From the NCBI GenBank assembly GCA_023379265.1, contig JAMCUI010000007.1, forward strand, positions 82,330-146,329: a DNA stretch of 64,000 bases, given 5' to 3'. Shown one piece after another: positions 44,549-63,275 of the stretch. The DNA is from Patescibacteria group bacterium (GTDB taxonomy: Bacteria > Patescibacteriota > Microgenomatia > 2-02-FULL-39-11). Made by a program: the position numbers and the translations under genes. Within the stretch, counting starts at the first letter, position 1; every line of letters begins with the position of its first letter. A model generated the notes under the pieces. The model was not told the DNA's origin, ran no database searches, and was given only the letters and a program-made list of their open reading frames with translations.

Positions 44549-44586
44549 AAGCAAAACAGGTTTTAACACTGTAAACGGTGCCCCGC
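44549..44586 (+). repeat. Dispersed ~40-bp repeat, copy 1 (AGCAAAACAGGTTTTAACACTGTAAACGGTGCCCCGC)
   Basis: Shares the consensus AGCAAArrAGGTTnTAACACTGTAnAyGGTkCyCCGC with five other copies; 42 bp after the GNAT stop. Confidence 0.7.
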
Positions 44587-44629
44587 AATCGAAAATTATC
44601 CTCGGAATTAAATAGAGAAGATACCATCT

Positions 44630-45000
44630 TTGGATTTTAGTATAATAAGCCTAATGAATGTCCGGTTTGCCATGCCAAAAGACAAAGCTAAAATCCTTAA
44701 TCTATTTGATGAGTTTAGTATTTTTATGGACGCTACAGATATACCCTCAAAAGTTGGCGGGGAAATATTTGATGAAATTATTAATAGAGGGGACATATTG
44801 AGGACCTTTTCATCACAAGTAACTCACGTGGTCGTGGTGTAGGAACATTTCTCTTAAATTCGATTAAGGACTGCTGTCGAAAAAATGATATAAAGGTTAT
44901 AAAATTAGATAGCGGAAATAACCTTGTAAGTGCCCATCATTTTTATGAGAAGAATGGTGGAAAGACTACGGAAAGGTTTTTCAGATTTGATATTGATTAA
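44630..45000 (+). pseudogene. GNAT acetyltransferase interrupted by a -1/+1 frameshift at a GGGG run
   Basis: Frame A 44630..44842 gives the GNAT N-terminus ...EIINRGDILRTFSSQVTHVVVV*. Frame +2 from about 44785 continues ...HIEDLFITSNSRGRGVGTFLLNSIKDCCRKNDIKVIKLD...AHHFYEKNGGKTTERFFRFDID* (GNAT motif A and C-terminus). Junction at AGAGGGGACA. Confidence 0.6.
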
Positions 45001-45070
45001 AGGTTAATATACTTTTTGCAGATATAGACTAATCGGCATGATTTACATATAATGATGGCAGTAGATATAA

Positions 45071-45625
45071 TTGATATTAATATTACTTATGACTACTCCT
45101 GCCGACCAGAAAAAAATTTCTCTTGACCAGCCTGACCTGAATGAAATCCTCCTTTCCTGGAAAAGTCCCTCACACCCGTTTAAGAAGCGAAACAGGATAT
45201 TTTACCAAACTGTTGCGGCAATTACTTTCCTTTTAGTGGTAATAGTATTTTTCCTTCACGAATTTATGCTCATGGGAGTTATACTTTCCATTGCTTTTCT
45301 GGTTTATGTACTGTCGACAGTGCCACCAATAGAAGTAGAACACAAAGTGACACCGATAGGTTTTGAAAATGCCGGCAGGCTCTTCCGCTGGATTGAGCTT
45401 GCGGCCTTTTGGTTTGAGGAAAAATGGGGATACAGGACTCTAGTAGTACAAACTAGAATTCCATTTCCTGTTCAGGTGCGCGCAGTAATGGGAAAAGATT
45501 TGTCAAAAGATAAAATTAAGGAAGTTATAGGGAAATACCTTTTGTATATGGAAAAACCGCAAAAGACCTGGACTGATAATTTTTCCGACTGGCTCAACCA
45601 AAAAATCCCTCTGGAAAACTCTTGA
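45071..45625 (+). CDS. Hypothetical membrane protein
   Basis: 184 aa, two central TM helices. No family recognised. Confidence 0.4.
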   Translation: MILILLMTTPADQKKISLDQPDLNEILLSWKSPSHPFKKRNRIFYQTVAAITFLLVVIVFFLHEFMLMGVILSIAFLVYVLSTVPPIEVEHKVTPIGFENAGRLFRWIELAAFWFEEKWGYRTLVVQTRIPFPVQVRAVMGKDLSKDKIKEVIGKYLLYMEKPQKTWTDNFSDWLNQKIPLENS

Positions 45626-45758
45626 TCTGCCTTAAAATTTCTCAATTCACAATTTTTATATAAAGAGTAATTAATGATATAATTTATCGCTCGGAGAAAA
45701 GATATATTGATGATTTTGGGATATTTCTAAAGAGAGAATATAATAGTTTTAGACCTTT

Positions 45759-45830
45759 GTCCCCGTAGCTTAACGGATAGAGCGCGGCCCTGCGGAGGCT
45801 GATATATGAGTTCAATTCTCATCGGGGACG
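45759..45830 (+). tRNA. tRNA-Arg with apparent anticodon GCG (unusual); CCA not encoded
   Basis: GTCCCCG/CGGGGAC acceptor, D-arm GCTTAACGGATAGAGC, anticodon stem CGGCC/GGCTG, loop CTGCGGA, T-arm ATGAGTTCAATTCTCAT. 72 nt. Confidence 0.65.
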
Positions 45831-45962
45831 CAGAACAAAATTTGATGATTTTTTCTGCATAATCGTACTATTATTTTGATTTATCCGGAAAATTTCATGA
45901 GAAATTATTAGGGAGTTATGGAGGAAGCGGTTAACTAGTGGGTCTCGAACCAAGTAATTGGC

Positions 45963-46052
45963 GGTGGGGTGTCAGAGAGGTCTATTGGCCAGGTCTCGAA
46001 AACCTTGGGGGTCGTAAGGCCCACGCGAGTTCGAATCTCGCCCCCACCGCCA
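45963..46052 (+). tRNA. tRNA-Ser (anticodon CGA), class II, CCA encoded
   Basis: GGTGGGG/CCCCACC acceptor, D-loop AGAGAGGTCTAT (Ser-like), anticodon loop CTCGAAA, long variable arm, T-arm GCGAGTTCGAATCTCGC, discriminator G + CCA. ORFs 45935..46162(-), 45938..46165(+) and the 5' part of 45969..46550 are translations of this RNA gene. Confidence 0.6.
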
Positions 46053-46061
46053 ATTATTGGA

Positions 46062-46081
46062 CGAATCTCGCCCCCACCGCC
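46062..46081 (+). repeat. Direct repeat of the last 20 nt of tRNA-Ser(CGA) (GAATCTCGCCCCCACCGCCA), 9 bp downstream of the tRNA
   Basis: Exact 20-nt match between 46033..46052 and 46062..46081. Confidence 0.85.
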
Positions 46082-46103
46082 AAAAATAATTTTCAAAACA
46101 ATT

Positions 46104-46550
46104 ATGACCAGAGAATTTTCAGCCGGGGGAATAGTCTTCAAAAAACAAAGAATAATAAACAATAAACAAAAGCTTGTTTGGCTGGTTGCACAGCATAGTC
46201 AGCATAAGGGTTGGGTTTTTCCAAAAGGACTAATTGGTGATCATATAAAAGGTGAGTCCAGCAGCGATACTGCTTTGAGGGAAGTAGAGGAGGAAACAGG
46301 AGTAAAGGGTAGGATTTTGGAAAAGCTGAAAAAACCCGCTACTTATTTTTATATCTGGCAGGGGGATAAAAGATTCAAGACTGTATATTATTTCCTGATG
46401 GAATATGAGAGTGGAGATATAGAGAAACACGATTTTGAGATGTCGGCTGTCGAGTGGTTGCTGACTGAGGAAGTGGAAAAACGCCTGAGTTACAAATCTG
46501 ATAAACTGGCTTTTCAGGAAGCATTGAAGATAATGAAGAATTATGAATAA
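46104..46550 (+). CDS. Nudix hydrolase
   Basis: Nudix box GESSSDTALREVEEETGVKG. Start taken at MTREFSAGGIVFKK (46104); the upstream in-frame extension is the tRNA. Confidence 0.8.
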   Translation: MTREFSAGGIVFKKQRIINNKQKLVWLVAQHSQHKGWVFPKGLIGDHIKGESSSDTALREVEEETGVKGRILEKLKKPATYFYIWQGDKRFKTVYYFLMEYESGDIEKHDFEMSAVEWLLTEEVEKRLSYKSDKLAFQEALKIMKNYE

Positions 46551-46585
46551 TGAATTAATGAGGAAGACTTCCTGATTCAAGTTTT

Positions 46586-46657
46586 GCTCTTGTAGCTTAA
46601 CGGATAGAGCGCGGCCCTCCGGAGGCTGATATGCGAGTTCAATTCTCGCCAAGAGCG
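46586..46657 (+). tRNA. tRNA-Arg (anticodon CCG); CCA not encoded
   Basis: GCTCTTG/CAAGAGC acceptor. Body identical to the 45759 tRNA apart from the anticodon loop (CTCCGGA) and T-stem/acceptor positions. Confidence 0.75.
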
Positions 46658-46701
46658 CAGTAAAATTGCTCACGATTTTACTGCGTAAACACCGACAATG
46701 T

Positions 46702-47268
46702 ATGAAAAATAAAATTTCTGATTTTATTTTTGAAGCTTCTACCTTAAAAAGTCTTAAGAGAACCGGCTGGCAGATATTGGGAGGAAATAAGGAATCTATT
46801 GCTGAGCATTCATTTATGGCTGCTGTGATAGCTTATACTCTTGCAGCACAAATCGGAGCAAATAAAGAGAAAACGGTTCTAATGGCTCTTTTCCATGATT
46901 TAGGTGAAGCGCGGACAGGAGATGTGTACAAGCTGGCCGATTTATATGTCTCAGCAGACAATGTAAAAGCCACGAAAGACGCTTTGGCAAAATTGCCTGA
47001 TTCTGGTACAATTGAAAAACTTTTTTCCGAATACGAAGAAGAGAAAACCCTGGAATCAAAAATCGTCCATGATGCGGATACTCTGGCCCTTGTTGTCGAG
47101 CTGAAAAAGATGATGGAGAATGGTAACGAAAATGCAAAGGAGTGGTTTGAGGCAAACTATAAATGTTTACGCTTGGATATTTCAAAAGAAGTGTTTAAGG
47201 AAATAAAAGAAGGCAATAGCCAGGATTGGTGGAAAAAGGAAAGAAAAAAGATTCACGACAGTTTTTGA
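46702..47268 (+). CDS. HD-domain phosphohydrolase (YfbR-like 5'-deoxynucleotidase family)
   Basis: HSFMAAVIAYTLA...LFHDLGEARTGDV (H...HD...D metal-binding motif). Start chosen at MKNKISDF, after the tRNA and hairpin. Confidence 0.7.
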   Translation: MKNKISDFIFEASTLKSLKRTGWQILGGNKESIAEHSFMAAVIAYTLAAQIGANKEKTVLMALFHDLGEARTGDVYKLADLYVSADNVKATKDALAKLPDSGTIEKLFSEYEEEKTLESKIVHDADTLALVVELKKMMENGNENAKEWFEANYKCLRLDISKEVFKEIKEGNSQDWWKKERKKIHDSF

Positions 47269-47283
47269 TTCTTGATGTTTTTA

Positions 47284-47371
47284 GGAAGGGTCGCATAGTT
47301 GGTCTAGTGCGAACGCTTGGAGAGCGTTTATATCCGCAAGGATATCGTGGGTTCGAATCCCACCCCTTCCG
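47284..47371 (+). tRNA. tRNA-Ser (anticodon GGA), class II; CCA not encoded
   Basis: GGAAGGG/CCCTTCC acceptor, anticodon arm AACGC-TTGGAGA-GCGTT, variable arm TATATCCGCAAGGATATCG, T-arm GTGGGTTCGAATCCCAC. ORF 47226..47561 overlapping it is spurious. Confidence 0.8.
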
Positions 47372-47535
47372 CAAGTATCCTATAGTTCTAAGAGACTCGC
47401 ATAATATCTCGGATAGTTTTCATTGTGTTTCTATATGTCTTCAAAATCAGTATTTCCCTTTCTTTAAAAACCTGAAGATTTATTTTTCACCAAATGTTCA
47501 TCTTTTATTAATAATATGCTATTGTTGGGAAAACT

Positions 47536-48198
47536 ATGAGAATACTTATTGCCGAAGATAATCGGAAATTAGCCGGATATATTAAACAGGCTTTGGGACA
47601 ACAAGGTTATACCGTAGATTCTGTCTACGATGGAGAAACTGCCGAAAATCGTATGTCTGATGAATATGATTTGGTAATTTTGGACATTATGTTACCTCAG
47701 AAAGATGGAATAACAGTCTGTAATAATGTTAGAGGCTACGGTTCTACAACACCGATTCTTATGCTTACTGCTAAGGGAGAACTGGATGATAAAGTTGATG
47801 GTTTGGATGCAGGAGCAGATGATTATCTTATAAAACCCTTTGAGATGAAGGAGTTACTGGCAAGAATACGTGCTTTACTCAGAAGACCAAAAGAGAAAAA
47901 GCCGGAAAAACTTATTGCCCAGAATATTACTCTTGATGGCGCCCGCCATATAGTATTAAAAGGAGAAGACGAACTTTCACTTACACTGAAGGAATACTCC
48001 GTTTTAGATTATATAATCAGGAATAAAAATAAAACGGTAACTCGGGAGCAGATACTTGATCACTGTTGGGATTTTTCCTACGATTCATTTTCCAATATTG
48101 TTGATGTATACATTAAACGTCTGCGTAAAAAGTTACAAGACAAAAATGAGCAATATATCAAAACAATTCGCGGCATTGGTTACCAATTTAAAGAATAA
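47536..48198 (+). CDS. OmpR-family two-component response regulator
   Basis: Receiver domain (ILIAEDN...LVILDIMLP, phospho-Asp context) and winged-helix C-terminus (IRGIGYQFKE). Confidence 0.85.
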   Translation: MRILIAEDNRKLAGYIKQALGQQGYTVDSVYDGETAENRMSDEYDLVILDIMLPQKDGITVCNNVRGYGSTTPILMLTAKGELDDKVDGLDAGADDYLIKPFEMKELLARIRALLRRPKEKKPEKLIAQNITLDGARHIVLKGEDELSLTLKEYSVLDYIIRNKNKTVTREQILDHCWDFSYDSFSNIVDVYIKRLRKKLQDKNEQYIKTIRGIGYQFKE

Positions 48199-49138
48199 GC
48201 CTTTTTTTCAGGCAAAACTAAAACTTACCGCCTATTATACTTTAGGGATTATTCTTATCCTCATTGTTGTAAATATACTTATCTATAGTCTTTTTGTCAG
48301 TGATCTGCAGGGGTCATATGAAGGAGAACAGTCTGACTTAGCTGCAGTGCATATTCAAGGGGCATTGAAGACAATAATTTTTACCGTAAATGGTCTGGGA
48401 CTAATATTGATATTTGGAGTTAGTTTTTATGTTGCTGGTAGAACACTTCTACCAATTGAAGAATCGTATAGACGTCAGAAAAAGTTTATTGCCGATGCCG
48501 CACACGAATTACGGACGCCCATAGCGGTGATGAAAGCCGGAGCAGAAACAATTCTGAGTAGTAACAGCAGCAAAAGTGACTATAAACAATTAACTCGGGA
48601 TTCACTGGAAGAACTAAATCTTTTGTCTTCTGAAGTAAACGATCTACTTTTTTTGGCACGCAATGATGACATCAGAAATTATCAATTCACAAAAATTGAT
48701 TTGGGTAAACTTGTTTTTCAGCAGATTAAACTTATGAAATCTTATGCCCAACGCCGAAAAGTCAATCTCAATTATCACTTCCAAGATAATATTTATATTC
48801 AGGGTAACCAAGGATATGTCAGCCGAATGGTTGTTAACTTACTTAAAAATGGTGTTGTATATAACAAGCCAAATGGAAAAGTCACAGTTTCTTTATATAA
48901 AAAAGAAAAACAAATTATTCTGTCTGTAAAAGATACGGGAATTGGTATTTCTTCAAAAGACTTGCCGTATATATTTGATAGATTTTATAAAGCCGACAGT
49001 GCCCGTCATAGCGAGGGAGCAGGTCTTGGTCTTTCTATTGTTTACGACATTGTTAAAATCCATAATGGAAATATCCATATTCAGAGCCAATTGAATAAAG
49101 GGACATTTGTTGAAGTAATTTTTCCTCAAAGCGCCTGA
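48146..49138 (+). CDS. Sensor histidine kinase
   Basis: Two TM helices, H-box AAHELRTPIAV, ATPase boxes (NLLKNGVVYNKP; DTGIGISSKDLPYIFDRFYKAD; GAGLGLSIV). Start at MSNISKQF, overlapping the regulator end. Confidence 0.8.
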   Translation: MSNISKQFAALVTNLKNKPFFQAKLKLTAYYTLGIILILIVVNILIYSLFVSDLQGSYEGEQSDLAAVHIQGALKTIIFTVNGLGLILIFGVSFYVAGRTLLPIEESYRRQKKFIADAAHELRTPIAVMKAGAETILSSNSSKSDYKQLTRDSLEELNLLSSEVNDLLFLARNDDIRNYQFTKIDLGKLVFQQIKLMKSYAQRRKVNLNYHFQDNIYIQGNQGYVSRMVVNLLKNGVVYNKPNGKVTVSLYKKEKQIILSVKDTGIGISSKDLPYIFDRFYKADSARHSEGAGLGLSIVYDIVKIHNGNIHIQSQLNKGTFVEVIFPQSA

Positions 49139-49201
49139 TACTGTTCACGGAATGTTCATCCTCATTTGATAGTATACTTCCAAGAAAGGAGGTGACGATA
49201 A

Positions 49202-49705
49202 ATGAAAAGCAATACAAATAGATTTCTAGTTCCACTTGCGGTTTTAGCAATTGTCGGACTGGGCGGAAGTCTATATACCCTGCAAAAAGCTGGACCAACT
49301 GCTGTTGAAGCCCAAACGGTTTCATCGGCAGTTAATGTGACTTCCTCAAATCAGGCAGAAAATACTTCTGAGAAGCCGGATGTAACCGAAATGGACAACA
49401 AGACACCGAGTTATACCTCAAATGTAACAGTGTCGGAAAGTCTGGAGACAAATACTTCTGAGGAAGTAAAAAAACTGTCCTCACTTGCCAAAATAAGCGC
49501 TGATCAGGCAAAAGTTGCAGCCGAAAAGGCAACAGGTGGAACAGCTTCAAGTGTGAAGTTAGAGGATGAGAACGGAAATGTCGTTTATGCGGTAACTGTT
49601 GGTTCAAAAGAAGTCAAAGTAGATGCGGGTAATGGAAAAATACTCCATACCGAGTTGGCAGATTCCGGTAATGAAGCAAAAGTATCAGAGACGGAGGCAA
49701 AGTAG
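49202..49705 (+). CDS. Secreted PepSY-domain protein
   Basis: Signal peptide, then KISADQAKVAAEKATGGTASSVKLEDENGNVVYAVTVGSKEVKVDAGNGKILHTE (PepSY-like fold signature). Confidence 0.55.
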   Translation: MKSNTNRFLVPLAVLAIVGLGGSLYTLQKAGPTAVEAQTVSSAVNVTSSNQAENTSEKPDVTEMDNKTPSYTSNVTVSESLETNTSEEVKKLSSLAKISADQAKVAAEKATGGTASSVKLEDENGNVVYAVTVGSKEVKVDAGNGKILHTELADSGNEAKVSETEAK

Positions 49706-49817
49706 ATCTGTCTGATCCAACATAAGCAGAAACGGGGATAATAAGTCCCTGTTTCTGCACAGATTCAAAATATATGAGGTTAATTTATAGTTAACAGTTA
49801 AAAGTAAGAGAGGAAAT

Positions 49818-50561
49818 ATGTTTAAAGATGAACCAATTATTGAAACAATAGATTTAAGTCATAGATATAACACACATAATGCGCTTGATAATCTGAATTT
49901 AACAATATATTCGGGTGAGATTTTCGGTTTTCTGGGACATAATGGTGCGGGTAAAACTACTACAGTTAATATACTGACTACACTTCTTAAACAAACATCA
50001 GGTACAGCAAAAATCGCCGGTCTTGATACGGTAAAGGAAAGTATTGAAGTTCGTCGTCATATCGGTTATTTACCTGAGAATGTGACATTTTATAACAATC
50101 TTACGGCTTTTGAGAATTTGGCCTATTTTGCAAAATTATCAGGAGTCAAAAACGTCGAGGCAAAAGTAATTGAAGTCTTAACTTATCTAAATTTTAGCGA
50201 AGTTAAGGATAAGAAACTGGGGGGATTTTCAAAGGGGATGCGCCAGCGCATCGGTATTGCTCAGGCAATTATTCATGAACCGGAGATACTTTTTCTTGAT
50301 GAACCGACATCAGGATTGGATCCACTTGGAATTAAAAACCTGAGGGAAATTATTATTCGTCTGAATCATGAAAAACAAATTACTATTTTTATGAATACAC
50401 ACCTTCTGTCGGAAGTTGCAAAAACATGTACAACAATTGGAGTGTTAAACCATGGAAGACTTATTTACAAAGATAGTCTTAAAAATACTCTTAAAAGATT
50501 TCCGACTGAGGTTTCGCTTGAAGAAATTTATGTCCAGATGGAAACAAATGGAAATAACTAA
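49818..50561 (+). CDS. ABC transporter ATP-binding protein
   Basis: Walker A GHNGAGKTTT, signature FSKGMRQRIGIAQA, Walker B ILFLDEPTSGLD. Confidence 0.9.
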   Translation: MFKDEPIIETIDLSHRYNTHNALDNLNLTIYSGEIFGFLGHNGAGKTTTVNILTTLLKQTSGTAKIAGLDTVKESIEVRRHIGYLPENVTFYNNLTAFENLAYFAKLSGVKNVEAKVIEVLTYLNFSEVKDKKLGGFSKGMRQRIGIAQAIIHEPEILFLDEPTSGLDPLGIKNLREIIIRLNHEKQITIFMNTHLLSEVAKTCTTIGVLNHGRLIYKDSLKNTLKRFPTEVSLEEIYVQMETNGNN

Positions 50562-50564
50562 CAA

Positions 50565-52506: not shown

Positions 52507-52539
52507 TTTTTAATAATATTTTAGAAAGGTAGGCTAAAT

Positions 52540-55576: not shown

Positions 55577-55675
55577 TTTTATAATAATACTCTTTCAAGA
55601 TGAGTTTCTCTAGAGAAATATATGCCAAAATGATACTTATTGCAGATTTCTCTAGATCTCAGGTGGTAAATGGGT

Positions 55676-56137
55676 TTATTTTAATAGTTTAAATTTATTG
55701 AGGAAATACCAAATAATAAATGTTGATGTGATAGAGATTACAATGCTACCAATAATATCTATTGGATGGTGAACATTTGAAAGAACCCGGGCAATTCCTA
55801 TACAAACAGAAAGTACTCCTAATAATATTCCTATCTTCTTGTGATAAATGAAAATAACTGAAGCTATTGCCATAGTCAGTAGTGTATGGTCTGATGGGAA
55901 ACCGTTATCTGTTGAGGCATGAATTAACGGTTGAATGTGCTGGACAATATATGGCCGAGGGTCAATTATCATGACCGCTAGTATTTTACTTATCAGATAT
56001 GCGAGGGGGAAAGTACCTAAAATAAGTTTGACGTAATTTCTCTGTATGCGTTTTGTCGAAGTAAATACTGTTATAGTTCCAAGTGTAATAACAACCAGAT
56101 ATAGATACTGAGCGCTAAAAATAATTAGAGGAATCAT
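55676..56137 (-). CDS. PAP2-family phosphatase (undecaprenyl-diphosphatase-like)
   Basis: PAP2 motifs GFPSDHT and ARVLSNVHHPIDI. Confidence 0.7.
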   Translation of the reverse strand: MIPLIIFSAQYLYLVVITLGTITVFTSTKRIQRNYVKLILGTFPLAYLISKILAVMIIDPRPYIVQHIQPLIHASTDNGFPSDHTLLTMAIASVIFIYHKKIGILLGVLSVCIGIARVLSNVHHPIDIIGSIVISITSTFIIWYFLNKFKLLK

Positions 56138-56398
56138 AATCTATTTTATCATGTGATGAGAGAGATGTTCGTTTTAAGAGTAATATAAAGTAATGATTTT
56201 ATAAATTATTCATTAACTGATCTTGAATTATCTGTCTACAAGATGATGAATATATCAAACTACATCATTAACACCTTGAAACACCCTTTTTATACTGTCT
56301 CATTTGTCTAATTTAGTCTCAGACTGGTACTAGTAGGAGTTATAAGGATGTCTGGCTTCCAGACGCAGTTGCTCCGCATCGAAAATTTCATTCCGCGT

Positions 56399-57844
56399 TT
56401 ATTTATATTGGGTATACCACCCCGGATCCACTTTTTCCTTCTTTGAAAAATAAACTTGTGTATCGGTAATTTCCGTTTCGGTATAATTTGGATCCATCTT
56501 CAATCTCTCAAAAAGAGTCTTGTATTCTCCCTCCGGTAGCGGCCAGAAGTTGTTGGGATTTTGTCCCGGGCGAAGATCAAGCGCGATAGTCTGGGGCAGA
56601 TACTGCCAGTATTTATCCCGTAAAAGCATTACGTTATGAGTATGTGTCAGTTGCGGTGCCAGATTATTTAGTGTCATGACCAGTCCTTTGTCCGGTATTT
56701 TTGTCAAGAAAGTCCTCAGGAAGTTCAAATCTTTGGTATGCGCATAAAATGCAGGGTTATATGCTAGCCCCAAGGGCCCATGCAGTTTCAAATGGAGAAA
56801 AATCGCCAAAAATATAATTCCTATAGCATGAAAAGTAGCAATTTTTCTGTAGACTTTCATTTCCATCAGTTTTTTTATACCCAAAATGCTTCCGTAAACC
56901 AGAAGAAAGGCAGCGATAGCGTTGTAATGGAGGCCCAGGTCAAGCCGGGCACTGGTGCCGGAGATGACAAACCTGATAAAGTAATCCTGGAGAATAACCG
57001 GCAGGAACAATGGGCTAAATAAGGGTAGGAAGGAGAAGGAAAGAAATGAAAGAGCAAGAGTGCCTGTTTTCACTAAAGGATAGAAAAACTGGGTTACCAT
57101 AGTGGAAATCGAATACTGGTTGGGAATATAGGCAAAAGGCCTACTGGCCAGATACGGCATTATTATTTTTACCGATATGAAGTAATAGGCAAGAGAATAG
57201 GTAAAAGTAAGAATTCCCTGTTTATAGTTTTTCCTCAAAATAAGATATATACCAAGGACAGTTCCAAAAATGACAAATGTTTCCTTTGTACCCAAAGTCA
57301 ATATAAAAAATAGCCAATACCAATGCCATTTTTTTCTCTCGAGTGCAAGAAAAGTTAATCCCAGAGTCAGAAGTGCGATAAATTCACTATGGAAATTGGA
57401 GATGACTGCATTTTGCAGTCCGACAAAAAGAGTGTACGTAATAATGGTGGAGAATAACAGCAGTTTGTTTTTTATCTCTCGGCCGAGAAAAATTAACATA
57501 CCTGCGCTTGCCGTTATGATTGCATTTTGTACGACAAGAATTGCGGTATAGGAAGAGGTAAGCCAATAAAGGGGTATAAGAAGTAGAATGGTTGGATCAA
57601 AGTGGTCACCGAATTGGTTGAGAAGATGATTTTCCACGTGATCAATAAGAGGGGCCCTGAAATGCGCCAGGTTCCATAGTGCCTGGTCATATATTCCGTG
57701 ATCAAAATAATAAGCTTCAAACTGCCAGAAGCGGTTCAGGACTACAAGGTTTAAGACTATGAAATAAACAGTGAGATAAATGATGATAAACCACCAGTCT
57801 TTGAAAAAAACGGATAACGTCCTGGAAAATGATTTTGCAGACAT
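56399..57844 (-). CDS. Large polytopic membrane protein, possible GT-C-type glycosyltransferase / DUF2079-like
   Basis: 481 aa, >=10 TM helices with a soluble C-terminal domain. Confidence 0.35.
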   Translation of the reverse strand: MSAKSFSRTLSVFFKDWWFIIIYLTVYFIVLNLVVLNRFWQFEAYYFDHGIYDQALWNLAHFRAPLIDHVENHLLNQFGDHFDPTILLLIPLYWLTSSYTAILVVQNAIITASAGMLIFLGREIKNKLLLFSTIITYTLFVGLQNAVISNFHSEFIALLTLGLTFLALERKKWHWYWLFFILTLGTKETFVIFGTVLGIYLILRKNYKQGILTFTYSLAYYFISVKIIMPYLASRPFAYIPNQYSISTMVTQFFYPLVKTGTLALSFLSFSFLPLFSPLFLPVILQDYFIRFVISGTSARLDLGLHYNAIAAFLLVYGSILGIKKLMEMKVYRKIATFHAIGIIFLAIFLHLKLHGPLGLAYNPAFYAHTKDLNFLRTFLTKIPDKGLVMTLNNLAPQLTHTHNVMLLRDKYWQYLPQTIALDLRPGQNPNNFWPLPEGEYKTLFERLKMDPNYTETEITDTQVYFSKKEKVDPGWYTQYK

Positions 57845-58023
57845 AATTATTGGAAATATAGATTAATTGTAGCCTAAGATGCAGTCTGTTGCATGTGTAG
57901 ATATTATTTGTGTTACCGGGTAAAATTGGTATAATTCCCTTTACCAACTGGAGATGTGTTGAAGTTTATGAATAATAGGAGTCAGTCTTGAAGCGCTAAT
58001 TGGAATAAGCAGTAATAACTGCA

Positions 58024-58110
58024 GGAGAGGTGCTGGAGTGGTTGAACAGGCTAGTCTTGAAAACTAGTATATCCGCAAGGATATCGTGGGTTCGAATCCC
58101 ACCCTCTCCG
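58024..58110 (+). tRNA. tRNA-Ser (anticodon TGA), class II; CCA not encoded
   Basis: GGAGAGG/CCTCTCC acceptor, anticodon arm CTAGT-CTTGAAA-ACTAG. Variable arm + T-arm identical over 37 nt to tRNA-Ser(GGA) at 47284. Confidence 0.8.
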
Positions 58111-58238
58111 CAGGATCAAAACATCAATTGAAGCAGGATTGACAGGGGCTGAGATTATAACCTAAGTGTTGTCTTTTTTAAATTCCATGATGATGAACTA
58201 GAAGAGAAATATTTTAAGTAGACAATTGATACTTTTCT

Positions 58239-58880
58239 TCATTTGTTTACAATCTTTCTTAATCCTTCCTGTAGAGTTTTACTGATCAGATCTTCCAGTA
58301 ATGACAAGTTTCCTTTATCTGCCTGTTGCATCGCAGTGATATATTGTTTTCTGTCAGATTTTTCATCTGTTTTTATCTCAATTCCAGGTAAATCTAACTT
58401 TAGTAATATTAAAATTGTCAGCATTCTTGCAATTCTACCGTTATAATCCTGAAAAGGATGAATAAATACAAATCTATGCTGGAACCAGGTTAATAATTTG
58501 ACTGCCTCAATAATAAACTCGCTAGATTTTGGGTTGGGTAAATATTTTAATCTTTCTTCCAAATCATTGCAAAGGTTTATCATTAGTTCCGGTATTAGGA
58601 AAAATTGCGGTGTTTCTTTTCCTGAAATAGTTACTTGTATCTTTCTGTACTTCCCAGCCCAATCAGGAAATATCCACTGGAAAGAAATTTCATGCAGTTT
58701 GCAGATTAACAGAGGTGTAATTTTTACGTCCTTATCACTACTTATCAGATCATAAATATAATCAAGCCCTCTTTTTGTTCCTTCAATTTCAAGTTTAAGA
58801 AGTTTTGATCGGGGAATAATACCAAAAGCTGTTTCTTTATATGAAGTTGCACCTTTTGGTTTTGTTGAAGCTTTTTTCAT
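58239..58880 (-). CDS. Fic-family protein (toxin-like) with variant active-site motif HPFQDYNGR
   Basis: FIHPFQDYNGRIARML matches the Fic core HPFx[DE]GNGRxxR except G to Y at position 6. 213 aa. Confidence 0.75.
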   Translation of the reverse strand: MKKASTKPKGATSYKETAFGIIPRSKLLKLEIEGTKRGLDYIYDLISSDKDVKITPLLICKLHEISFQWIFPDWAGKYRKIQVTISGKETPQFFLIPELMINLCNDLEERLKYLPNPKSSEFIIEAVKLLTWFQHRFVFIHPFQDYNGRIARMLTILILLKLDLPGIEIKTDEKSDRKQYITAMQQADKGNLSLLEDLISKTLQEGLRKIVNK

Positions 58881-58883
58881 TTA

Positions 58884-59060
58884 TCATTTGAGTACTGATG
58901 AAACCATCTTACGTGTAACAGGTTCTCCTTCAAGCTTGGTTGTCCGAAATATAATTTCAGGAATCAAAGCACGGAAAAATCCCAACACTGGTTTACCCTT
59001 TTTTGCAGTACGGTATTTAGAATATGCTTGTAATAGTTTGTTTTCATTCTTTTTGCTCAT
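58884..59060 (-). CDS. Small protein carrying the Fic inhibitory-helix motif (class I Fic antitoxin-like, VbhA-type)
   Basis: ...IIFRTTKLEGEPVTRKMV contains TTKLEG = [ST]xxxE[GN]. Ends TGA-TAA immediately before the Fic ATG. Start at MSKKN (59060) or further upstream (59138). Confidence 0.55.
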   Translation of the reverse strand: MSKKNENKLLQAYSKYRTAKKGKPVLGFFRALIPEIIFRTTKLEGEPVTRKMVSSVLK

Positions 59061-59184
59061 ATTTAAAGTATATAACTTTCCAGAAGCTAAATAAAGGTCT
59101 ATATACAGCCGTAAGACTATTACATCAATAAAAAACACTAGAATATAGGTTGTTCAATTAATAATTTGTTGGTATAGTTGAGTT

Positions 59185-59535
59185 ATGGATAAATTCAGAA
59201 AGAACAATTTATCGGATATTCCAATTGAAGAAGCTCATGGAGGTTCTGGTTCTCGTCAGGTATTAGTAAAGCCCGAACAAGTTACAAGTAAATACTTTGA
59301 AGCCATGACAAAGGGATTTCTTAAATCTGGAGGGGTATTTGACTGGCATACGCATAATGATACAGATGAAGTGTTTATTGTATTAAAAGGACATGGCAAA
59401 TTTTATTGTGAAGAAAAAATAACAGAATATGATGAGGGAGACATTGTAATTATTCCTGCAAATCTTAAGCATAAAATTGAAGCTAGTGGAGATATAACCA
59501 ATGAATACTATTTTGTCAGAGTAAGAGCAAAGTAG
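59185..59535 (+). CDS. Cupin-domain protein
   Basis: DWHTHNDTDEVFIVLKGHG...GDIVIIPANLKHKIEA (cupin_2 two-motif pattern). Confidence 0.65.
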   Translation: MDKFRKNNLSDIPIEEAHGGSGSRQVLVKPEQVTSKYFEAMTKGFLKSGGVFDWHTHNDTDEVFIVLKGHGKFYCEEKITEYDEGDIVIIPANLKHKIEASGDITNEYYFVRVRAK

Positions 59536-59562
59536 GTTCTAACACTGTATATGGTGCCCCGC
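59526..59562 (+). repeat. Dispersed repeat, copy 2 (AGCAAAGTAGGTTCTAACACTGTATATGGTGCCCCGC)
   Basis: Overlaps the last codons and stop of the cupin gene. Followed by GC-rich hairpins (CTTCGGTCGCCGAAG; GGTCGCC...GGCGACC). Confidence 0.7.
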
Positions 59563-59711
59563 CTTCGGTCGCCGAAGCTTCACGCGGAGGCGACCTTTAT
59601 CCTGGTAAAGACACTAATTCTAAGGGAGAAACTGCTACTCTTGGGCGACCTACATAGACAAAGTCCCCTTGAGAGAATAAATTGATGTGTTTTTCTTGAG
59701 TACATCTTGTA

Positions 59712-60044
59712 ATGGTTTGTTATAATAATCACCCTATGACTGTTTCAGACGGTGTGGTGCATAAAGTTCCAGTGGATTTACGGGAAGCTTTAACTTCTGA
59801 TCTAAAAGCGCTCGCCTTATGGGAAAACCTTACGCCGCTTGCACGCAATGAATGGATATGCTGGGCAACCTTCCCTAAAAAGTTGGAAACCAGAAAACAA
59901 CATGTTGAAAGAGTCATCACGGAACTTAAAGAAGGAATGCGCAGACCTTGTTGTTGGATTGGTTGTATACACCGTAAGGATAAATCAATAAGCCCTTCGG
60001 TGCAGTATATACTTAATAAACGATTTAAAAGTAGATCTAAGTAG
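59712..60044 (+). CDS. YdeI/OmpD-associated (bacteriocin-protection-like) family small protein
   Basis: LALWENLTPLARNEWICWATFPKKLETRKQHVERVITEL resembles the YdeI/DUF1905-type family signature. Confidence 0.45.
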   Translation: MVCYNNHPMTVSDGVVHKVPVDLREALTSDLKALALWENLTPLARNEWICWATFPKKLETRKQHVERVITELKEGMRRPCCWIGCIHRKDKSISPSVQYILNKRFKSRSK

Positions 60045-60098
60045 TCACGATCAAGAAAAGGTGAGTTGTTGATAGGTAAATTGATTTATCGAAGAAGA

Positions 60099-60134
60099 AG
60101 CAAAGTAGGTTATAACACTGAAATGGTTCTCCGC
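60099..60134 (+). repeat. Dispersed repeat, copy 3 (AGCAAAGTAGGTTATAACACTGAAATGGTTCTCCGC)
   Basis: In the intergenic region after the YdeI-like gene. A partial copy ATAGGTTGTTCTACGGCC follows at about 60158. Confidence 0.7.
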
Positions 60135-60188
60135 AATTTCTGGCAAGGACAAATAATATAGGTTGTTCTACGGCCTTAAAACTCATTT

Positions 60189-60210
60189 TAGGTTCTAACA
60201 CTGTAACGGG
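60189..60210 (+). repeat. Dispersed repeat, copy 4, truncated (TAGGTTCTAACACTGTAACGGG)
   Basis: Shares the TAGGTTCTAACACTGTA core. Confidence 0.6.
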
Positions 60211-60402
60211 TTGTGTCTTCGAAACCTTTTTAATTACTTTTTAAATAAAATGTATGGAAATGAGTAATCATTGTGAAGACAAGATTATTTATATAAAATA
60301 TCAATATATGGAAGAAAAATCTGACGAAAGTCAACCGTCGCACTTACCTTCCCCGTAATCCTTCGGGCTCTTTTACCCGTAAGGAACGGGTAGAAAGAAG
60401 CC

Positions 60403-61683
60403 ATGATTAAAATTCTAAGCATCATCATATTTCTTGTTGGTTATATCGTTATCTCGCAGGAACATTTACTGAAGGTAAGTAAAACTTCTATCAGTCTGAT
60501 TATCGATGTAGTCTTATGGTTCTTAGTGATTGCCAGCGGTAACAATAATATCGGATTAGCATTATCAGAAGCTGGTAGTGAGATTTTCGGATTGGTTATA
60601 TTTCTTCTCTCAGCAATGACACTGGTTGAAATTCTGACCCATTATGGACTGTTTGATTATATCTATAACTGTTTGATTATATCTATATAAGATTAGTGAA
60701 ACTGCATCTTGGAGATAAAACCCAGTTTTTTATCATTGCTCTCCTTACTTTTCTTTTCTCAGCTTTCCTTGACAACTTAACCACTACTATAGTTTTTTTA
60801 CAGATATAAAGTAGATTCTTCAGTGGTAAAAACCTGATGAAATCAGCGGCAGTAATAGTGATTGCCGCCAATGCGGGTGGCGCCTTTTCTCCCATCGGGG
60901 ATGTTACAACAACCATGTTGTGGCTTGCCAATAAGTTTACAACACAAACACTTTTTACTCAGGCTTTTCTTCCATCTCTAACTGTATTTTTGGTGAGTAC
61001 TCTTTTAATAGGTAGATCAATCACAACCGACACGAAGGATAAAATCGAAAAAGCAGTAAGATTGGGGAAAACAGAGTGGTTGATTATTAGCCTTTGTCTT
61101 CTTTCTTTCCTTTTGCCGTTATTTATGACTGTTCTTCACTTACCGCCGTATATAGGTTTACTGTTTGGATTGGGGATCATCTGGTTGGTGGTTGATTTGG
61201 CAAAACACCGTACACCTCATAGTTCCATTCTTTCCATGTCAATTGAAAAGTTTTTCCAAAAGACTGATATAGCCAGTCTCTACTTTTTTATTGGTATTCT
61301 GATGGCGATTGCTGCACTTAGATACATAGGAATATTAGACGAGATATCACAAAAAGTTTTTACCGAAACACCATCAACAGTCAGGATTATTACTGGAAAT
61401 ATCGCTATCGGGGGGTTATCCGCAATCTTTGACAATATACCTCTTACAGCAGCTGCAATTGATATAGTCAAGACCACTGATGCAAACCTGGGCTCTTTTG
61501 GCTTTAACGGTTGGAATAGGCGGCTCACTGCTTCTTATCGGTTCTGCACCCGATATTGTAGCGATGGCAATAATTAAGGAACTTAGCTTTACCGCATATT
61601 TAAGGATCGCTACGATTCCTGCATTGATAGCCTATTGTCTTGGTATTACCGTGTGGATTTTACAGTATAATCTATTTAAATAA
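60403..61683 (+). pseudogene. NhaD/ArsB-type ion transporter gene broken into >=4 frame pieces
   Basis: Pieces 60403..60690, about 60690..60800 (...LGDKTQFFIIALLTFLFSAFLDNLTTTIVFL), 60837..61577 and 61480..61683 are consecutive segments of one ArsB/NhaD-like permease in different frames. A 20-bp tandem duplication at 60648..60687 causes the first shift. Confidence 0.65.
60648..60687 (+). repeat. Perfect 20-bp tandem duplication (ACTGTTTGATTATATCTATA x2) inside the transporter pseudogene
   Basis: Read directly from the sequence. Length not a multiple of 3, so it is frameshifting. Confidence 0.85.
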
Positions 61684-61684
61684 T

Positions 61685-62320
61685 ATGAGTTATTGGAAGC
61701 ATTGGAAATATAAACATCTTACCTTCTTTATCATAAGCATCATTTTTGTTGCTCTGCTTACCAAACTAGAAATATTCCATCAAACCCTTATTCACCTTGG
61801 AAATTTCGGATATATTGGAGCATTTTTTGCCGGTATATTGTTTGTTTCTACCTATACTGTCAGTATCGGAGCATTACTTCTACTGATTCTGGCGGAATAC
61901 TTAAATCCTATCGAAATTGCCTTAATAGCCGGATTGGGTGCGGTATTTGGCGATTATGTAATATTCAGACTGGTTAAGGACAATTTAGTTTATGAACTGG
62001 CAGATATCTATAATCACTTTGGCGGTAAACATCTGTCACATCTTCTGCATACCCGTTATTTCAGCTGGTCTCTGCCTGTAATCGGAGCTTTAATAATTGC
62101 TTCACCTCTACCTGATGAGATGGGGGTAGGACTGTTGGGTATAAGCAAGATGAGTACCTATTCCTTATTCTGTCTTTTATACTTAACTCAATTGGAATAT
62201 TTATTGTCGTATCAGCTTCCGTATTGGTTAAGCCTTAACAAAAGCGGGATTCTGAATATACGAAGGAAACCCGAAATAGGTTATAATACTGTAAATGGTT
62301 CTCCGCCTTCGCCTCGCTGA
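61685..62320 (+). CDS. Hypothetical polytopic membrane protein; 3' end runs into a copy of the dispersed repeat
   Basis: About 211 aa, ~6 TM helices. The last ~14 codons (IGYNTVNGSPPSPR) are encoded by the repeat element. Confidence 0.45.
   Translation: MSYWKHWKYKHLTFFIISIIFVALLTKLEIFHQTLIHLGNFGYIGAFFAGILFVSTYTVSIGALLLLILAEYLNPIEIALIAGLGAVFGDYVIFRLVKDNLVYELADIYNHFGGKHLSHLLHTRYFSWSLPVIGALIIASPLPDEMGVGLLGISKMSTYSLFCLLYLTQLEYLLSYQLPYWLSLNKSGILNIRRKPEIGYNTVNGSPPSPR
62273..62306 (+). repeat. Dispersed repeat, copy 5 (GAAATAGGTTATAATACTGTAAATGGTTCTCCGC)
   Basis: Forms the 3' end of ORF 61685..62320. Followed by a 150-bp GC-rich multi-hairpin stretch. Confidence 0.65.
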
Positions 62321-62466
62321 AGTCCCGATTACATCGGGACGAAAGCGGGCTTCGCCCGTTCAGCTCGGCTTCGGCGAGATAAAATCCGCTTTCAGATCGA
62401 CGTAGCTTCATGCGAAGTCGTCTTTTACCTCGACGTAACTTTAGTGAAGTTGGGTATAATTAACTC

Positions 62467-62709
62467 ATGTTTTGGTATGTTTATATCCTTAGGTGTAAGG
62501 ATGAAAGATTTTACATCGGTTGTGCAGATAATCTGAAAGATCGAATAGAAAGACACCAAAAATGCCAAGTCCCAGCCACAAAAGATCGCCTTCCCATAAA
62601 ACTTATTTCTTACTTCGCATTCTCCAATAAATACACCACATTCAATTTCGAGAAATATCTCAAATCCGGTTCAGGAAGAGCGTTTGTAAAGCAACACAAA
62701 TTCGTATAA
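62467..62709 (+). CDS. GIY-YIG nuclease-domain small protein (UPF0213-like)
   Basis: MFWYVYILRCKDERFYIGCADNLKDRIERHQ is the GIY-YIG motif with conserved Arg and His. 80 aa. Confidence 0.7.
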   Translation: MFWYVYILRCKDERFYIGCADNLKDRIERHQKCQVPATKDRLPIKLISYFAFSNKYTTFNFEKYLKSGSGRAFVKQHKFV

Positions 62710-62733
62710 TATAGTAAGTAATAGTATCAATTT

Positions 62734-63237
62734 ATGAACATCCGGAATTGCAATGTAAATGATATTGATGGAATTAGACAATTTTTGTCCAGAAATAAGC
62801 CCTTAGGTGCACATTCACCTGCCACTTATTGGGTTTTATTTACATACTTTAATAATTCATATTTCGTAGCTGAAGAAAATAATAAAATAATTGGTTTTAC
62901 TGGAGGATTGGAAAGCACCTCTCAACCTGGAGTATTTCATCTTTGGCAAATTGGAGTAGATAAAGAGTATAGGAGAAAAGGATATGCAGAAAAACTTCTT
63001 TATACTGTTCTTAAGGAAATAATAACAATGAAATGTACAAAATTACAGATTTCTATGGTCCCTGAAAATATAGCCAGTTTCAGATTGTTTACCAAATTTG
63101 CAAAAAAGTATAGAAAAGAAATGGTACGATTATCGTTGATTGATTATTATGACAGTCTAAGTAATTTCAAGGAAAATGAAATTCTTTATGAGATAGATAT
63201 TTCGGATATTAAGATTGAAACACTGGCACAAAATTAA
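62734..63237 (+). CDS. GNAT family acetyltransferase
   Basis: WQIGVDKEYRRKGYAEKLLYTVLKEI (acetyl-CoA-binding motif A). Confidence 0.7.
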   Translation: MNIRNCNVNDIDGIRQFLSRNKPLGAHSPATYWVLFTYFNNSYFVAEENNKIIGFTGGLESTSQPGVFHLWQIGVDKEYRRKGYAEKLLYTVLKEIITMKCTKLQISMVPENIASFRLFTKFAKKYRKEMVRLSLIDYYDSLSNFKENEILYEIDISDIKIETLAQN

Positions 63238-63275
63238 AAGCAAAATAGGTTATAACACTGTACACGGTGCCCCGC
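63236..63275 (+). repeat. Dispersed repeat, copy 6 (AAAAGCAAAATAGGTTATAACACTGTACACGGTGCCCCGC)
   Basis: Starts at the stop codon of the GNAT gene 62734..63237. Confidence 0.7.

Follow-up and report, generated by a model that had tools for sequence, protein, structure and literature searches.

Integron cassette arrays consist of small, co-oriented and functionally unrelated accessory genes, each followed by a recombination-site repeat. They stack at one anchor, their segments carry no recombinase and their content varies between strains, in all of which the array described here resembles them. The attC repeat of integrons has the core consensus RYYYAAC and GTTRRRY and is a hairpin conserved in structure, whereas the repeat studied here is a 36-mer conserved in linear sequence. 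IS200/IS605 and IS91-type elements insert 3' of a fixed short target, and T4 SegB is encoded by a free-standing GIY-YIG homing endonuclease gene in a tRNA gene cluster. Genomic islands at tRNA 3' ends can grow by tandem accretion of integrase-less elements, giving CIME-type arrays (PMC5704250). In Patescibacteria the gain and loss of accessory genes are poorly understood because genomes are very small and few mobile elements have been recognised in them. In our best reading, the repeats described below mark the points at which blocks of accessory genes are inserted or lost beside tRNA-Ser genes in these ultra-small bacteria. The repeat, which is not described in the literature searched by full text and is absent from Rfam 15, provides a sequence-defined marker of such hot spots in several patescibacterial lineages, and a search with the 36-mer would allow their cassette content to be catalogued.

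The window, that is the whole 64-kb stretch of DNA analysed, was searched with GGTTNTAACACTGTA at up to two mismatches, which returned 7 matches against 0.52 expected, a number reached in none of 100 shuffles. A match at 23301, with flanks unlike those of the other copies, is due to chance. Repeat search and nhmmer profile agree on the six-copy, plus-strand family of the original prediction, with all copies intergenic and arranged in two clusters:

44547-44588, + strand: repeat copy 1 (E 1e-9 in the profile search)
59524-59564, + strand: repeat copy 2, with its CCGC end at 59562
60096-60136, + strand: repeat copy 3, with its CCGC end at 60134
60179-60213, + strand: repeat copy 4, a partial variant without the CCGC end
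62269-62308, + strand: repeat copy 5, whose terminal TCTCCGC (62300-62306) is the right end of a strain-variable block
63237-63276, + strand: repeat copy 6, the last in the array, kept in the short-allele strain too

The conserved block of about 36 nt, AAAATAGGTTATAACACTGTAAATGGTTCTCCGC, runs from 6 nt before AGGTT to ...CCGC; upstream of it lies a weakly conserved extension of about 50 nt, and past CCGC conservation ends sharply in an alignment of copies from all loci. Its core GTTNTAAC, previously described as a small palindrome, is perfectly so only if N = A, which is the commonest variant. Conservation among Patescibacteria is wide: about 45 loci of Gottesmanbacteria, Woesebacteria and further Patescibacteria contain the block, invariably in intergenic DNA and with its orientation kept, all copies of any given locus lying on one strand in profile searches, and the same 36 nt turn up about 60 times downstream of unrelated genes from different patescibacterial classes. 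Between the window and its relative MFJR01000015.1 the repeat is 85% identical, the genes common to both only 71-82%. Several copies end in GCCCCGC or ATTCCGC instead of TCTCCGC, so that only CCGC is universal. A co-oriented gene precedes 41 of 52 copies, all 52 being intergenic and about 11 lying in divergent intergenic regions. Four window copies had been placed at or near stop codons, which is partly right: the TAG of copy 2 (59533-59535) is the cupin stop codon, and copy 6 begins one base past the GNAT stop (63235-63237). Between the YdeI/OmdA stop (60044) and copy 3 there are 54 nt, and copy 5 lies about 31 nt past the native stop (TAA, 62236-62238) of a membrane-protein gene, the open reading frame that runs into this copy resulting from a frameshift near 62160. 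Copy 1 has a 322-aa GNAT gene before it and a broken GNAT gene after it. Over all loci, only 5 of 58 copies have their TAG at the end of a frame 60 codons long or longer.

Structure was assessed by attC criteria, comprising imperfect inverted repeats (R''/L'' ... L'/R') 57-141 nt apart and a bulged bottom-strand hairpin. An inverted partner is lacking at all six window copies, the best downstream match being no better than those in shuffles (p 0.3-0.99), and in single-strand folds of the bottom strand the window repeats stay unpaired (z -0.7 to +1.3); the attC-like bulged hairpins that the original prediction proposed to look for are not seen. The sole stable fold is that of the trailer after copy 5, made of local hairpins that exclude the repeat. 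The GC-rich stretches noted earlier behind copies 2 and 5 are real, and with a third trailer element read as follows:

59563-59660, + strand: GC-rich trailer after copy 2, homologous (47/60) to the L132 trailer behind tRNA-Ser(gga)
62307-62466, + strand: GC-rich hairpin trailer after copy 5, from junction to GIY-YIG gene (fold z -2.45)
58140-58167, - strand: inverted TAGGTTATAAT box in the tRNA-Ser(tga) trailer, a member of the GCGGGATTAGAACCTA family

A true integron array (attC sites, CALIN) with its integrase outside the window would fit the small, co-oriented, cassette-type genes (GNATs, cupin, a Fic gene of the 'mobile mystery protein B' kind, YdeI), and TTCTAAC and GTTAGAA resemble the attC core consensus; elsewhere, about 10 of 57 copies have an inverted GCGGGATTAGAACCTA box 40-140 nt downstream that is able to pair with the repeat. 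The same box, however, also stands behind plain tRNA-Ser genes, the family following about 10 repeat copies and 3 tRNA-Ser genes, and the junctions described below fall at CCGC, inside the would-be attC, and not at the R' box (between G and TTRRRY). Neither the window nor about 38 related loci yielded the IntI-like recombinase expected near the array, and what stands at the head of the window array is the 3' end of a tRNA-Ser(tga) gene, not attI by intI. Together with the missing inverted partners and hairpins, this leaves the integron reading with hardly any credence.

REP/BIME sequences are, like the repeat, short, conserved and intergenic, often past stop codons. A selfish REP- or MITE-like repeat bounded by TAGGTT... 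and ...AACCTA, adjacent to accessory genes by coincidence, would agree with its multiple intergenic copies and with a subset of 85-165 bp units closed by inverted TAGGTTNTAA and TTAGAACCTA ends. Such an inverted end is present in only about 10 of 57 copies and in none in the window, the units inspected showed no target-site duplication, and there is no palindromic stem. Copies keep a single orientation in every locus and cluster at tRNA-Ser genes, and their conservation reaches far beyond the species; a generic REP scattered in both orientations does not describe them, and we consider any selfish repeat of this type highly improbable.

The repeat might also act in the transcript, as a signal in the 3' UTR or leader, mimicking a tRNA-Ser precursor at its 3' end and serving processing, termination or protein binding; it would then mark gene boundaries because its signal is read at the transcript level. 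Its orientation along with the flanking genes, usually within 150 nt past a stop codon, accords with this, as do the hairpins frequent behind the CCGC end and the tendency, judged by eye and without statistics, of a long form with TATAAT to follow a divergent upstream gene. Yet no conserved structure emerges (RNAalifold -2.8 kcal/mol, no covariation), Rfam 15 has no match at any copy (whole window at gathering threshold, also at E up to 10), and 58-64 kb contains three terminator-like sites (3.6 expected), all away from the repeat copies. These results likewise lend no support to the mRNA-stabilising, terminator and sRNA-binding roles put forward before. A transcript signal also leaves unexplained the exact CCGC ends of the strain indel and the flank swaps described below, and on balance it is very unlikely.

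The repeat ends like a tRNA-Ser gene and its arrays are anchored on tRNA-Ser genes, the key feature overlooked when the repeat itself was correctly picked out. Two such genes concern the window copies:

41794-41883, + strand: tRNA-Ser(gct), the nearest tRNA upstream of copy 1
58024-58111, + strand: tRNA-Ser(tga), the array anchor, ending in the TCTCCGC (58105-58111) that forms the left end of the strain-variable block

The last bases of the repeat, TCTCCGC, match the 3' end of tRNA-Ser genes, and the DNA downstream of a copy is that found behind intact tRNA-Ser genes elsewhere, flanks swapping between both. When repeat copies are paired with tRNA-Ser genes, the 60 nt past CCGC are identical at 47-57 of 60 positions in 6 of 8 pairs (best of 300 shuffles, 40), and identity in the 30 nt before the junction is at chance level for the same pairs. 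The switch point is always right past CCGC: the junction is precise and the flanks are interchangeable. Copy 4 sits within a trailer that in locus L137 directly follows tRNA-Ser(gct), L137 142-219 matching window 60129-60206 at 87%. In each of the 13 arrays that have a tRNA gene upstream, the nearest one is a tRNA-Ser on the same strand, with tRNA-Arg genes interleaved; at several loci the upstream DNA is free of tRNA genes for several kb. Downstream of tRNA-Ser(gct) in the window come two hairpins and the remnant of a GIY-YIG gene. The interval from tRNA-Ser(tga) to a 274/276-aa gene holds different genes in the window and in MFJR01000015.1.

The shared flanks could also mean that the repeats are relic pseudo-tRNA-Ser ends with no dedicated mechanism, derived from a tRNA-Ser gene copy duplicated with its flank, in which case the strain indel would be an illegitimate deletion between short repeats and the conservation due to recent common descent or gene conversion. 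The long form is indeed laid out like a tRNA-Ser gene (TATAAT, about 10 nt, GGAG..., then ...TTCTCCGC(C)), and for the L131 copy an alignment with tRNA-Ser(tga) reaches z = 5.8, with GCGGTGGTCTTGAAA opposite GCGTTGGTCTTGAAA. A profile of 14 long copies nevertheless misses tRNA-Ser genes (E at least 9), and the Rfam tRNA model misses the element. Random decay would not be expected to leave the same 36 nt behind unrelated genes in different classes, nor a repeat better conserved than the genes shared with MFJR01000015.1, and we hold a relic origin to be quite unlikely.

Comparison of strains provides the decisive evidence. Contig JAMDBJ010000028.1 of GCA_023487465.1 is colinear with the window at 38088-58111 (99.75-99.8%) and 62300-64000 (98.8%), and lacks one block:

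58112-62306, strand not assigned: strain-variable block, 4,195 bp

This is the sole large difference over about 26 kb that are 99.7-99.8% identical. The two flanking alignments overlap by 7 nt, TCTCCGC, and the indel ends are the TCTCCGC that closes tRNA-Ser(tga) and the TCTCCGC that closes copy 5. The block contains genes for Fic and an 84-aa partner, cupin, YdeI, a broken NhaD/CitMHS transporter and a frameshifted membrane protein, along with repeat copies 2, 3, 4 and 5. The empty allele is carried by GCA_023487465.1 and by Logan SRR10252151 and SRR10244963, the filled allele by the window and by Logan SRR10278331; the empty junction, ...CCCACCCTCTCCGC joined to CTTCGCCTCGC..., is seen in two independent Logan assemblies too, and places the trailer 62307-62466 directly after tRNA-Ser(tga). 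A near-identical strain in which the block is cut exactly at the tRNA-Ser(tga) end and the copy 5 end bears out the prediction of gene presence and absence bounded by the repeat, and with it the view of the repeats as cassette boundaries or recombination sites.

These alleles have the layout of an att site: the tRNA gene on one side is intact, its 3' end recurs as a direct repeat on the other, and the empty and the occupied allele both have their end points within the repeat. tRNA islands share this layout, the precise excision and insertion alleles between strains and the tandem accumulation. The segments here differ from such islands in being about 0.5-2 kb long, with one to three genes and a core of only 4-7 bp; no integrase was found inside an element beside the tRNA in the window segments or the related loci, and the arm on the element side is conserved across distant Patescibacteria behind many cargos. 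We favour, with a probability of roughly 0.6, the reading that the repeat is the cassette-borne, conserved half of an att-type recombination junction that targets tRNA-Ser 3' ends. The junction comprises a conserved arm, AAAATAGGTTATAACACTGTAAATGGT with TAGGTTNTAAC boxes, probably a protein-binding site, and then the short core TCTCCGC, identical to the acceptor-stem end, the discriminator G and the first C of tRNA-Ser genes. Segments ending in a repeat would be joined exactly past the ...CCGC of a tRNA-Ser gene or of an earlier copy, each joining shifting the former downstream flank rightward; because every insertion would recreate the target, segments would stack downstream of the tRNA, head to tail and all in the same orientation. 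If two cores recombined, the intervening DNA would be lost. The reaction would be conservative site-specific recombination within the 7-bp core, by an enzyme presumed to act in trans, none being encoded in the segments. Against this stand the lack of a recombinase among the ORFs surveyed and of copies on viral contigs, the copies with ends other than TCTCCGC or in divergent intergenic regions, the loci with no tRNA nearby upstream, and the diversity of the sequences right of the core, which have no conserved inverted binding site, unlike typical tyrosine-recombinase core sites. One deletion of 4.2 kb between 7-bp repeats might, moreover, in principle have arisen by illegitimate recombination.

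In our best reading the array resembles integrons and tRNA-island accretion arrays in how it works and belongs to neither as defined. More tentatively, and with considerable doubt on our part, it may be an undescribed patescibacterial cassette platform parallel to the integron, in which the tRNA-Ser end may serve as attI and the 36-nt linear mimic of a tRNA-Ser end as attC; the inserting and excising enzyme would not be an integron integrase, and this part may fall to a recombinase encoded elsewhere or to the linked UPF0213 GIY-YIG nucleases of 80 aa. With an ordinary tRNA-specific integrase that acts in trans, the array would represent a new form of island accretion, and otherwise a cassette system of a new kind.

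No recombinase or integrase was detected by Pfam in about 50 ORFs scanned across 1-64 kb, in agreement with the original prediction for the window, and none was noticed among the large ORFs near about 38 related loci, which were judged by eye. IS200/IS605 and IS91-type elements resemble the segments in that insertion takes place precisely on the 3' side of a fixed short sequence and always in one orientation, with no target-site duplication and with hairpins near the left junction; the segments differ in their accessory-gene cargo, in the absence of an IS200/IS605 Y1 HUH transposase gene among the Pfam-scanned window ORFs, and in having no subterminal hairpin at the repeat end. Viral contigs gave no repeat copy. 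The only linked enzyme candidates, judging from gene neighbourhood, are UPF0213 GIY-YIG nucleases beside junctions, represented in the window next to a cargo gene:

62467-62709, + strand: 80-aa GIY-YIG nuclease gene, UPF0213 type, adjoining the junction
62734-63237, + strand: GNAT acetyltransferase gene, cargo between the GIY-YIG gene and copy 6

Fifteen GIY-YIG genes occur in 14 of the about 38 loci, all on the repeat strand, and 10 of the 15 have their start no more than 180 nt past a tRNA-Ser gene or repeat end; the polymorphic window junction is 160 nt upstream of one. The spacer between tRNA-Ser(gct) and tRNA-Ser(tga) measures 7 nt in L148; in L134 it consists of a 65-nt hairpin remnant, and in L154 it holds both hairpins and a GIY-YIG gene, a presence/absence series between conserved genes as known for free-standing GIY-YIG homing genes, which are inserted between conserved tRNA genes. 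The loci could on this basis be homing-endonuclease hot spots, where UPF0213 GIY-YIG nucleases cut at or near the ...CCGC of tRNA-Ser genes and of the repeat, break repair copies or deletes neighbouring DNA, and the repeat serves as second target or homology anchor rather than as a recombinase site; a LAGLIDADG-like ORF in the L154 tRNA cluster (judged by eye) and the lack of a recombinase among the ORFs surveyed agree with this. Homing genes of that kind nonetheless differ from those here, which encode UPF0213 catalytic domains of about 80 aa with no recognisable DNA-binding domain: in the window protein Pfam detects only the GIY-YIG domain, and its best solved relative is the uncharacterised UPF0213 protein BH0048 (PDB 1ZG2, E 7e-7). 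Many repeat-bounded segments are moreover free of a GIY-YIG gene, among them the Fic/cupin, YdeI and transporter segments of the window, and break repair normally gives neither base-precise junctions nor a direct repeat of the target. Homing is for these reasons an unlikely explanation. A role of the nucleases at the att-type junction would possibly give the widespread UPF0213 GIY-YIG proteins a first function. One further pair of sequences frames the locus:

63272-63290, + strand: 19-nt direct repeat CCGCAGGATCCAAACATCA, with its partner at 58108-58126 (18/19 identical)

These two direct repeats enclose the entire window array.

The repeat family claimed in the original prediction was borne out: with up to two mismatches, GGTTNTAACACTGTA gives seven matches in the window against 0.52 expected, a count reached in 0 of 100 shuffles. 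The match at 23301 is a chance one, its flanks not matching those of the other copies. The remaining six, numbered in coordinate order, are supported twice, by the repeat search and by nhmmer, whose profile drew on every copy found subsequently.

Repeat copies in the window, each supported by repeat search and nhmmer
44547-44588, + strand, repeat copy 1
59524-59564, + strand, repeat copy 2
60096-60136, + strand, repeat copy 3
60179-60213, + strand, repeat copy 4, a variant lacking the terminal CCGC
62269-62308, + strand, repeat copy 5
63237-63276, + strand, repeat copy 6

All six are intergenic and on the + strand, in a window that is AT-rich (~37% GC) and that, judged by gene content and closest relatives, is from Patescibacteria, near Gottesmanbacteria. 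Pfam and NCBIfam confirmed the genes named earlier (GNATs, cupin, OmdA/YdeI, GIY-YIG and a broken NhaD/CitMHS transporter). The proposed abutment of stop codons holds for copies 2 and 6 and fails for copy 3, lying 54 nt past the stop, and for copy 5, ~31 nt past the native stop, the ORF reading into copy 5 being the product of a frameshift. This frameshift, in the membrane-protein gene 61685-62320, lies near 62160 relative to the homologue in MFJR01000015.1, with the native TAA at 62236-62238; the same gene end followed by the repeat also occurs in L139 and L126 (L numbers denote related loci from genomes or metagenomes outside the window). The antiporter gene of NhaD/CitMHS type (60403-61577) is broken into an N-terminal 92-aa fragment (60403-60690) and a central fragment (60837-61577), and a GNAT pseudogene with in-frame stops occupies 44630-45000, its intact homologue in L135 (669-1133) ending in a repeat copy.

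Two pattern scans, of reference genomes and of metagenomes, sought copies outside the window. The 15-base pattern used on genomes returned mostly single chance matches, from which true copies were picked by matching flanks: these lie in two Gottesmanbacteria MAGs, one Woesebacteria MAG and two "Patescibacteria group" MAGs, with further copies in two MAGs that carry a Gammaproteobacteria label and in a 3.5-kb contig from a Bacteroidota bin, and a truncated copy on a Saccharibacteria contig. Locus L029, labelled Gammaproteobacteria, has the same tRNA cluster synteny as the window. The metagenome scan added 34 stretches. Over ~60 copies the conserved block comprises ~36 nt, from AAAAT before AGGTT to ...GGTTCTCCGC, and ends abruptly after CCGC; a weaker extension of ~50 nt lies upstream, which in a "long" subfamily contains TTTAGGCTATAAT, ~10 nt, then GGAG. 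Every multi-copy locus carries its copies on one strand only. Where the upstream neighbor is known, it is co-oriented with the copy in 41 of 52 cases, and 37 of these 41 copies lie at most 150 nt past its stop. The possibility that the repeat is coding (K-stop or MVLK mini-ORF) was rejected, as TAG is the stop of a real frame in just 5 of 58 copies and variation does not fall at synonymous positions. Assembly breaks as a sign of heterogeneity at the repeat were likewise discarded: 5 of 23 contigs have an end at most 150 nt from a copy, not significantly more than the 3.7 expected.

The abrupt terminus, (T)CTCCGC, is also the end of a tRNA-Ser gene, namely acceptor strand, discriminator G and first C, and the DNA directly 3' of it (the trailer) is shared as well. 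Copy 2 has a trailer matching the one past tRNA-Ser(gga) in L132, copy 3 has one, copy 4 included, matching the one past tRNA-Ser(gct) in L137, and the first 15 nt past copy 6 match those past tRNA-Ser(tga) of the window at 14 positions; equivalent matches are found in L029 and in the pairs L032/L098, L149/L133 and L147/L154. In six of eight copy-versus-tRNA-Ser pairs, 47-57 of the 60 nt following CCGC are identical, the best of 300 shuffles giving 40, and identity over the 30 nt to the left is at chance level. The junction after CCGC is common to tRNA-Ser genes and the repeat, and many older rearrangements switch at it. The nearest upstream tRNA is a same-strand tRNA-Ser gene in all 13 arrays that have an upstream tRNA, with tRNA-Arg interleaved in the same clusters, and a 19-nt direct repeat, CCGCAGGATC[A/C]AAACATCA, stands at both sides of the whole window array. 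As can be seen, copies keep a single orientation and segments stack downstream of tRNA-Ser genes. A gene-like layout and one strong pairwise alignment invite the speculation that the element may itself descend from a tRNA-Ser(tga) gene, but a search with the repeat profile fails to pick up tRNA-Ser genes.

Comparing strains for presence or absence of genes at the repeat, as had been proposed, revealed such a polymorphism. Exact-sequence lookup of the GNAT protein (62734-63237) led to contig JAMDBJ010000028.1 of GCA_023487465.1 and to three Logan assemblies. This contig is colinear with window 38088-52625 (99.8% identity, one gap), and matches 52526-58111 at 99.75% and 62300-64000 at 98.8%. It is without 58112-62306, and its two flanking alignments have 7 nt in common, TCTCCGC, which ends both tRNA-Ser(tga) (58024-58111, + strand) and copy 5.

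Junction sequences, the slash marking the position directly after CCGC
Short-allele (empty) junction, JAMDBJ010000028.1: ...GGGTTCGAATCCCACCCTCTCCGC/CTTCGCCTCGCTGAAG...
Empty junction: CCCACCCTCTCCGC/CTTCGCCTCGC
Window left (filled) junction: ...CCCACCCTCTCCGC/AGGATCAAAAC...
Window right (filled) junction: ...AAATGGTTCTCCGC/CTTCGCCTCGCTGAAG...

Two Logan contigs from other runs (SRR10252151 and SRR10244963) have the short junction preceded by 28 nt of tRNA, and one (SRR10278331) has the long allele, so that the polymorphism does not stem from faulty assembly of a single data set. The junction directly after CCGC is precise, and at least one insertion or excision at it is recent. Within the 4,195-bp block lie a Fic gene with an 84-aa partner, cupin, YdeI, four repeat copies, the broken transporter and the frameshifted membrane-protein gene; the block encodes no recombinase. 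In the more distant relative MFJR01000015.1, different genes and two repeat copies fill the corresponding interval, between tRNA-Ser(tga) and the 274/276-aa gene. Exact protein lookup of the Fic, cupin and YdeI cassettes returned the same sample only. The Fic-domain protein (58239-59138, - strand) has "mobile mystery protein B" (TIGR02613) as its best NCBIfam match, below cut-off, and its partner matches no family; within this strain-variable block the pair is likely a toxin-antitoxin-like module. The GC-rich trailer before the GIY-YIG gene (window 62307-62466, L156 5587-5735) differs between the two strains by a ~20-nt indel in a hairpin, this interval being less similar (98.8%) than the rest (99.75%).

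For the reaction itself we infer a conservative site-specific event in which crossover would fall within the shared heptamer, the 29-nt repeat arm with its TAGGTTNTAAC box being a putative protein-binding arm and the excised circle being predicted to carry the junction AAATGGTTCTCCGC/AGGATCAAAACATCA. Segments would accrete because each insertion recreates the target. The TAGGTTNTAAC box recurs in the long form and in the trailer of copy-4 type, and is found inverted in some trailers.

The integron-like array suggested originally did not stand up at the level of the site: an inverted partner within 260 nt is found for 0 of 6 window copies, and in bottom-strand DNA folds of these copies the repeat is unpaired (z -0.7 to +1.3) rather than forming an attC-type bulged hairpin. 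The sole stable bottom-strand fold is the GC-rich trailer past copy 5 (z -2.45), of which the repeat is no part. RNAalifold gave no common RNA fold for 14 long copies (-2.8 kcal/mol, no covariation), and Rfam, at curated gathering and permissive thresholds over the window and eight loci, no match at any copy. The alternative of a conserved terminator found no support either, no terminator-like site in the scan of 58-64 kb coinciding with a copy. Neither a TIR/MITE structure nor target-site duplications were found, and viral contigs gave 0 repeat matches as candidate phage attP. Because folds, partner boxes, Rfam, terminators, recombinases and viral contigs all tested negative, the repeat falls outside the definitions of attC, REP, MITE and terminator. 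It works like the sites of an integron array, yet differs from them in these properties; it also resembles integrase-less elements accreting in tandem at a tRNA gene, whereas a tRNA island is defined by an integrase, which the element here is without. We read the repeat as probably a tRNA-targeted recombination junction at which cassettes accrete; that it stands for a cassette platform of its own, served by a non-integron enzyme, we consider unlikely. Literature searches on integrons or attC in Patescibacteria and on GIY-YIG with tRNA-Ser returned nothing relevant.

As had been stated for integrases, no recombinase was found in the 64-kb window, nor among the large ORFs of related loci. The sole gene family linked to the junctions encodes an 80-aa UPF0213 GIY-YIG nuclease, and the main rival to a tRNA-targeted recombination junction is a model in which this nuclease would be the driver. 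All 15 such genes, in 14 loci, lie on the repeat strand, 10 of them starting at most 180 nt from a tRNA-Ser gene or repeat end, and a presence/absence series of the gene is seen between two tRNA-Ser genes. The only other DNA-mobility candidates met, both judged by eye from sequence, are an rve-type DDE transposase adjoining a repeat copy (L127 615-1487, oriented, - strand) and a LAGLIDADG-like ORF within a tRNA-Arg/Ser cluster (L154 3982-5010).

Several neighboring features were recorded. The 3'-terminal 22 nt of tRNA-Ser(cga), CGAATCTCGCCCCCACCGCCAA, have an exact second copy 8 nt past the gene (46032-46083), which looks like an integration/excision scar with a core from T-loop to 3' end, a junction type unlike the repeat studied here. 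The stretch 41884-41990, past tRNA-Ser(gct), has two long hairpins along with a C-terminal remnant of a GIY-YIG gene; positions 41952-41985 share 82% identity with 62665-62698. A conserved inverted box, (CTGACAGG)GGACGGGATTAGAACCTAA, occurs at window 58140-58167 (- strand), L131 813, L154 5137, L125 1791 and elsewhere, 40-140 nt past some tRNA-Ser genes or repeat copies and directly ahead of the start codon of the next ORF; the tRNA T-arm is complementary to this box, as is TAGGTTNTAA plus TCCGC in the repeat. The 3' halves (~45 nt) of tRNA-Ser(gga) (47329-47372) and tRNA-Ser(tga) (58068-58111) are 96% identical, which is probably why several public contigs break inside these genes. In L128, a fluoride-riboswitch-like match (2157-2225; 29.2 bits, short of the gathering score, 34) lies ~150 nt downstream of a repeat copy. 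The window begins at dnaA (525-1898), this being the replication origin region, and carries a complete mevalonate-pathway cluster at 23391-30091 (HMG-CoA reductase and synthase, thiolase, GHMP kinases, decarboxylase) and, directly past smpB, a 437-nt tmRNA gene (40561-40997; Rfam 110 bits) missed by ARAGORN.
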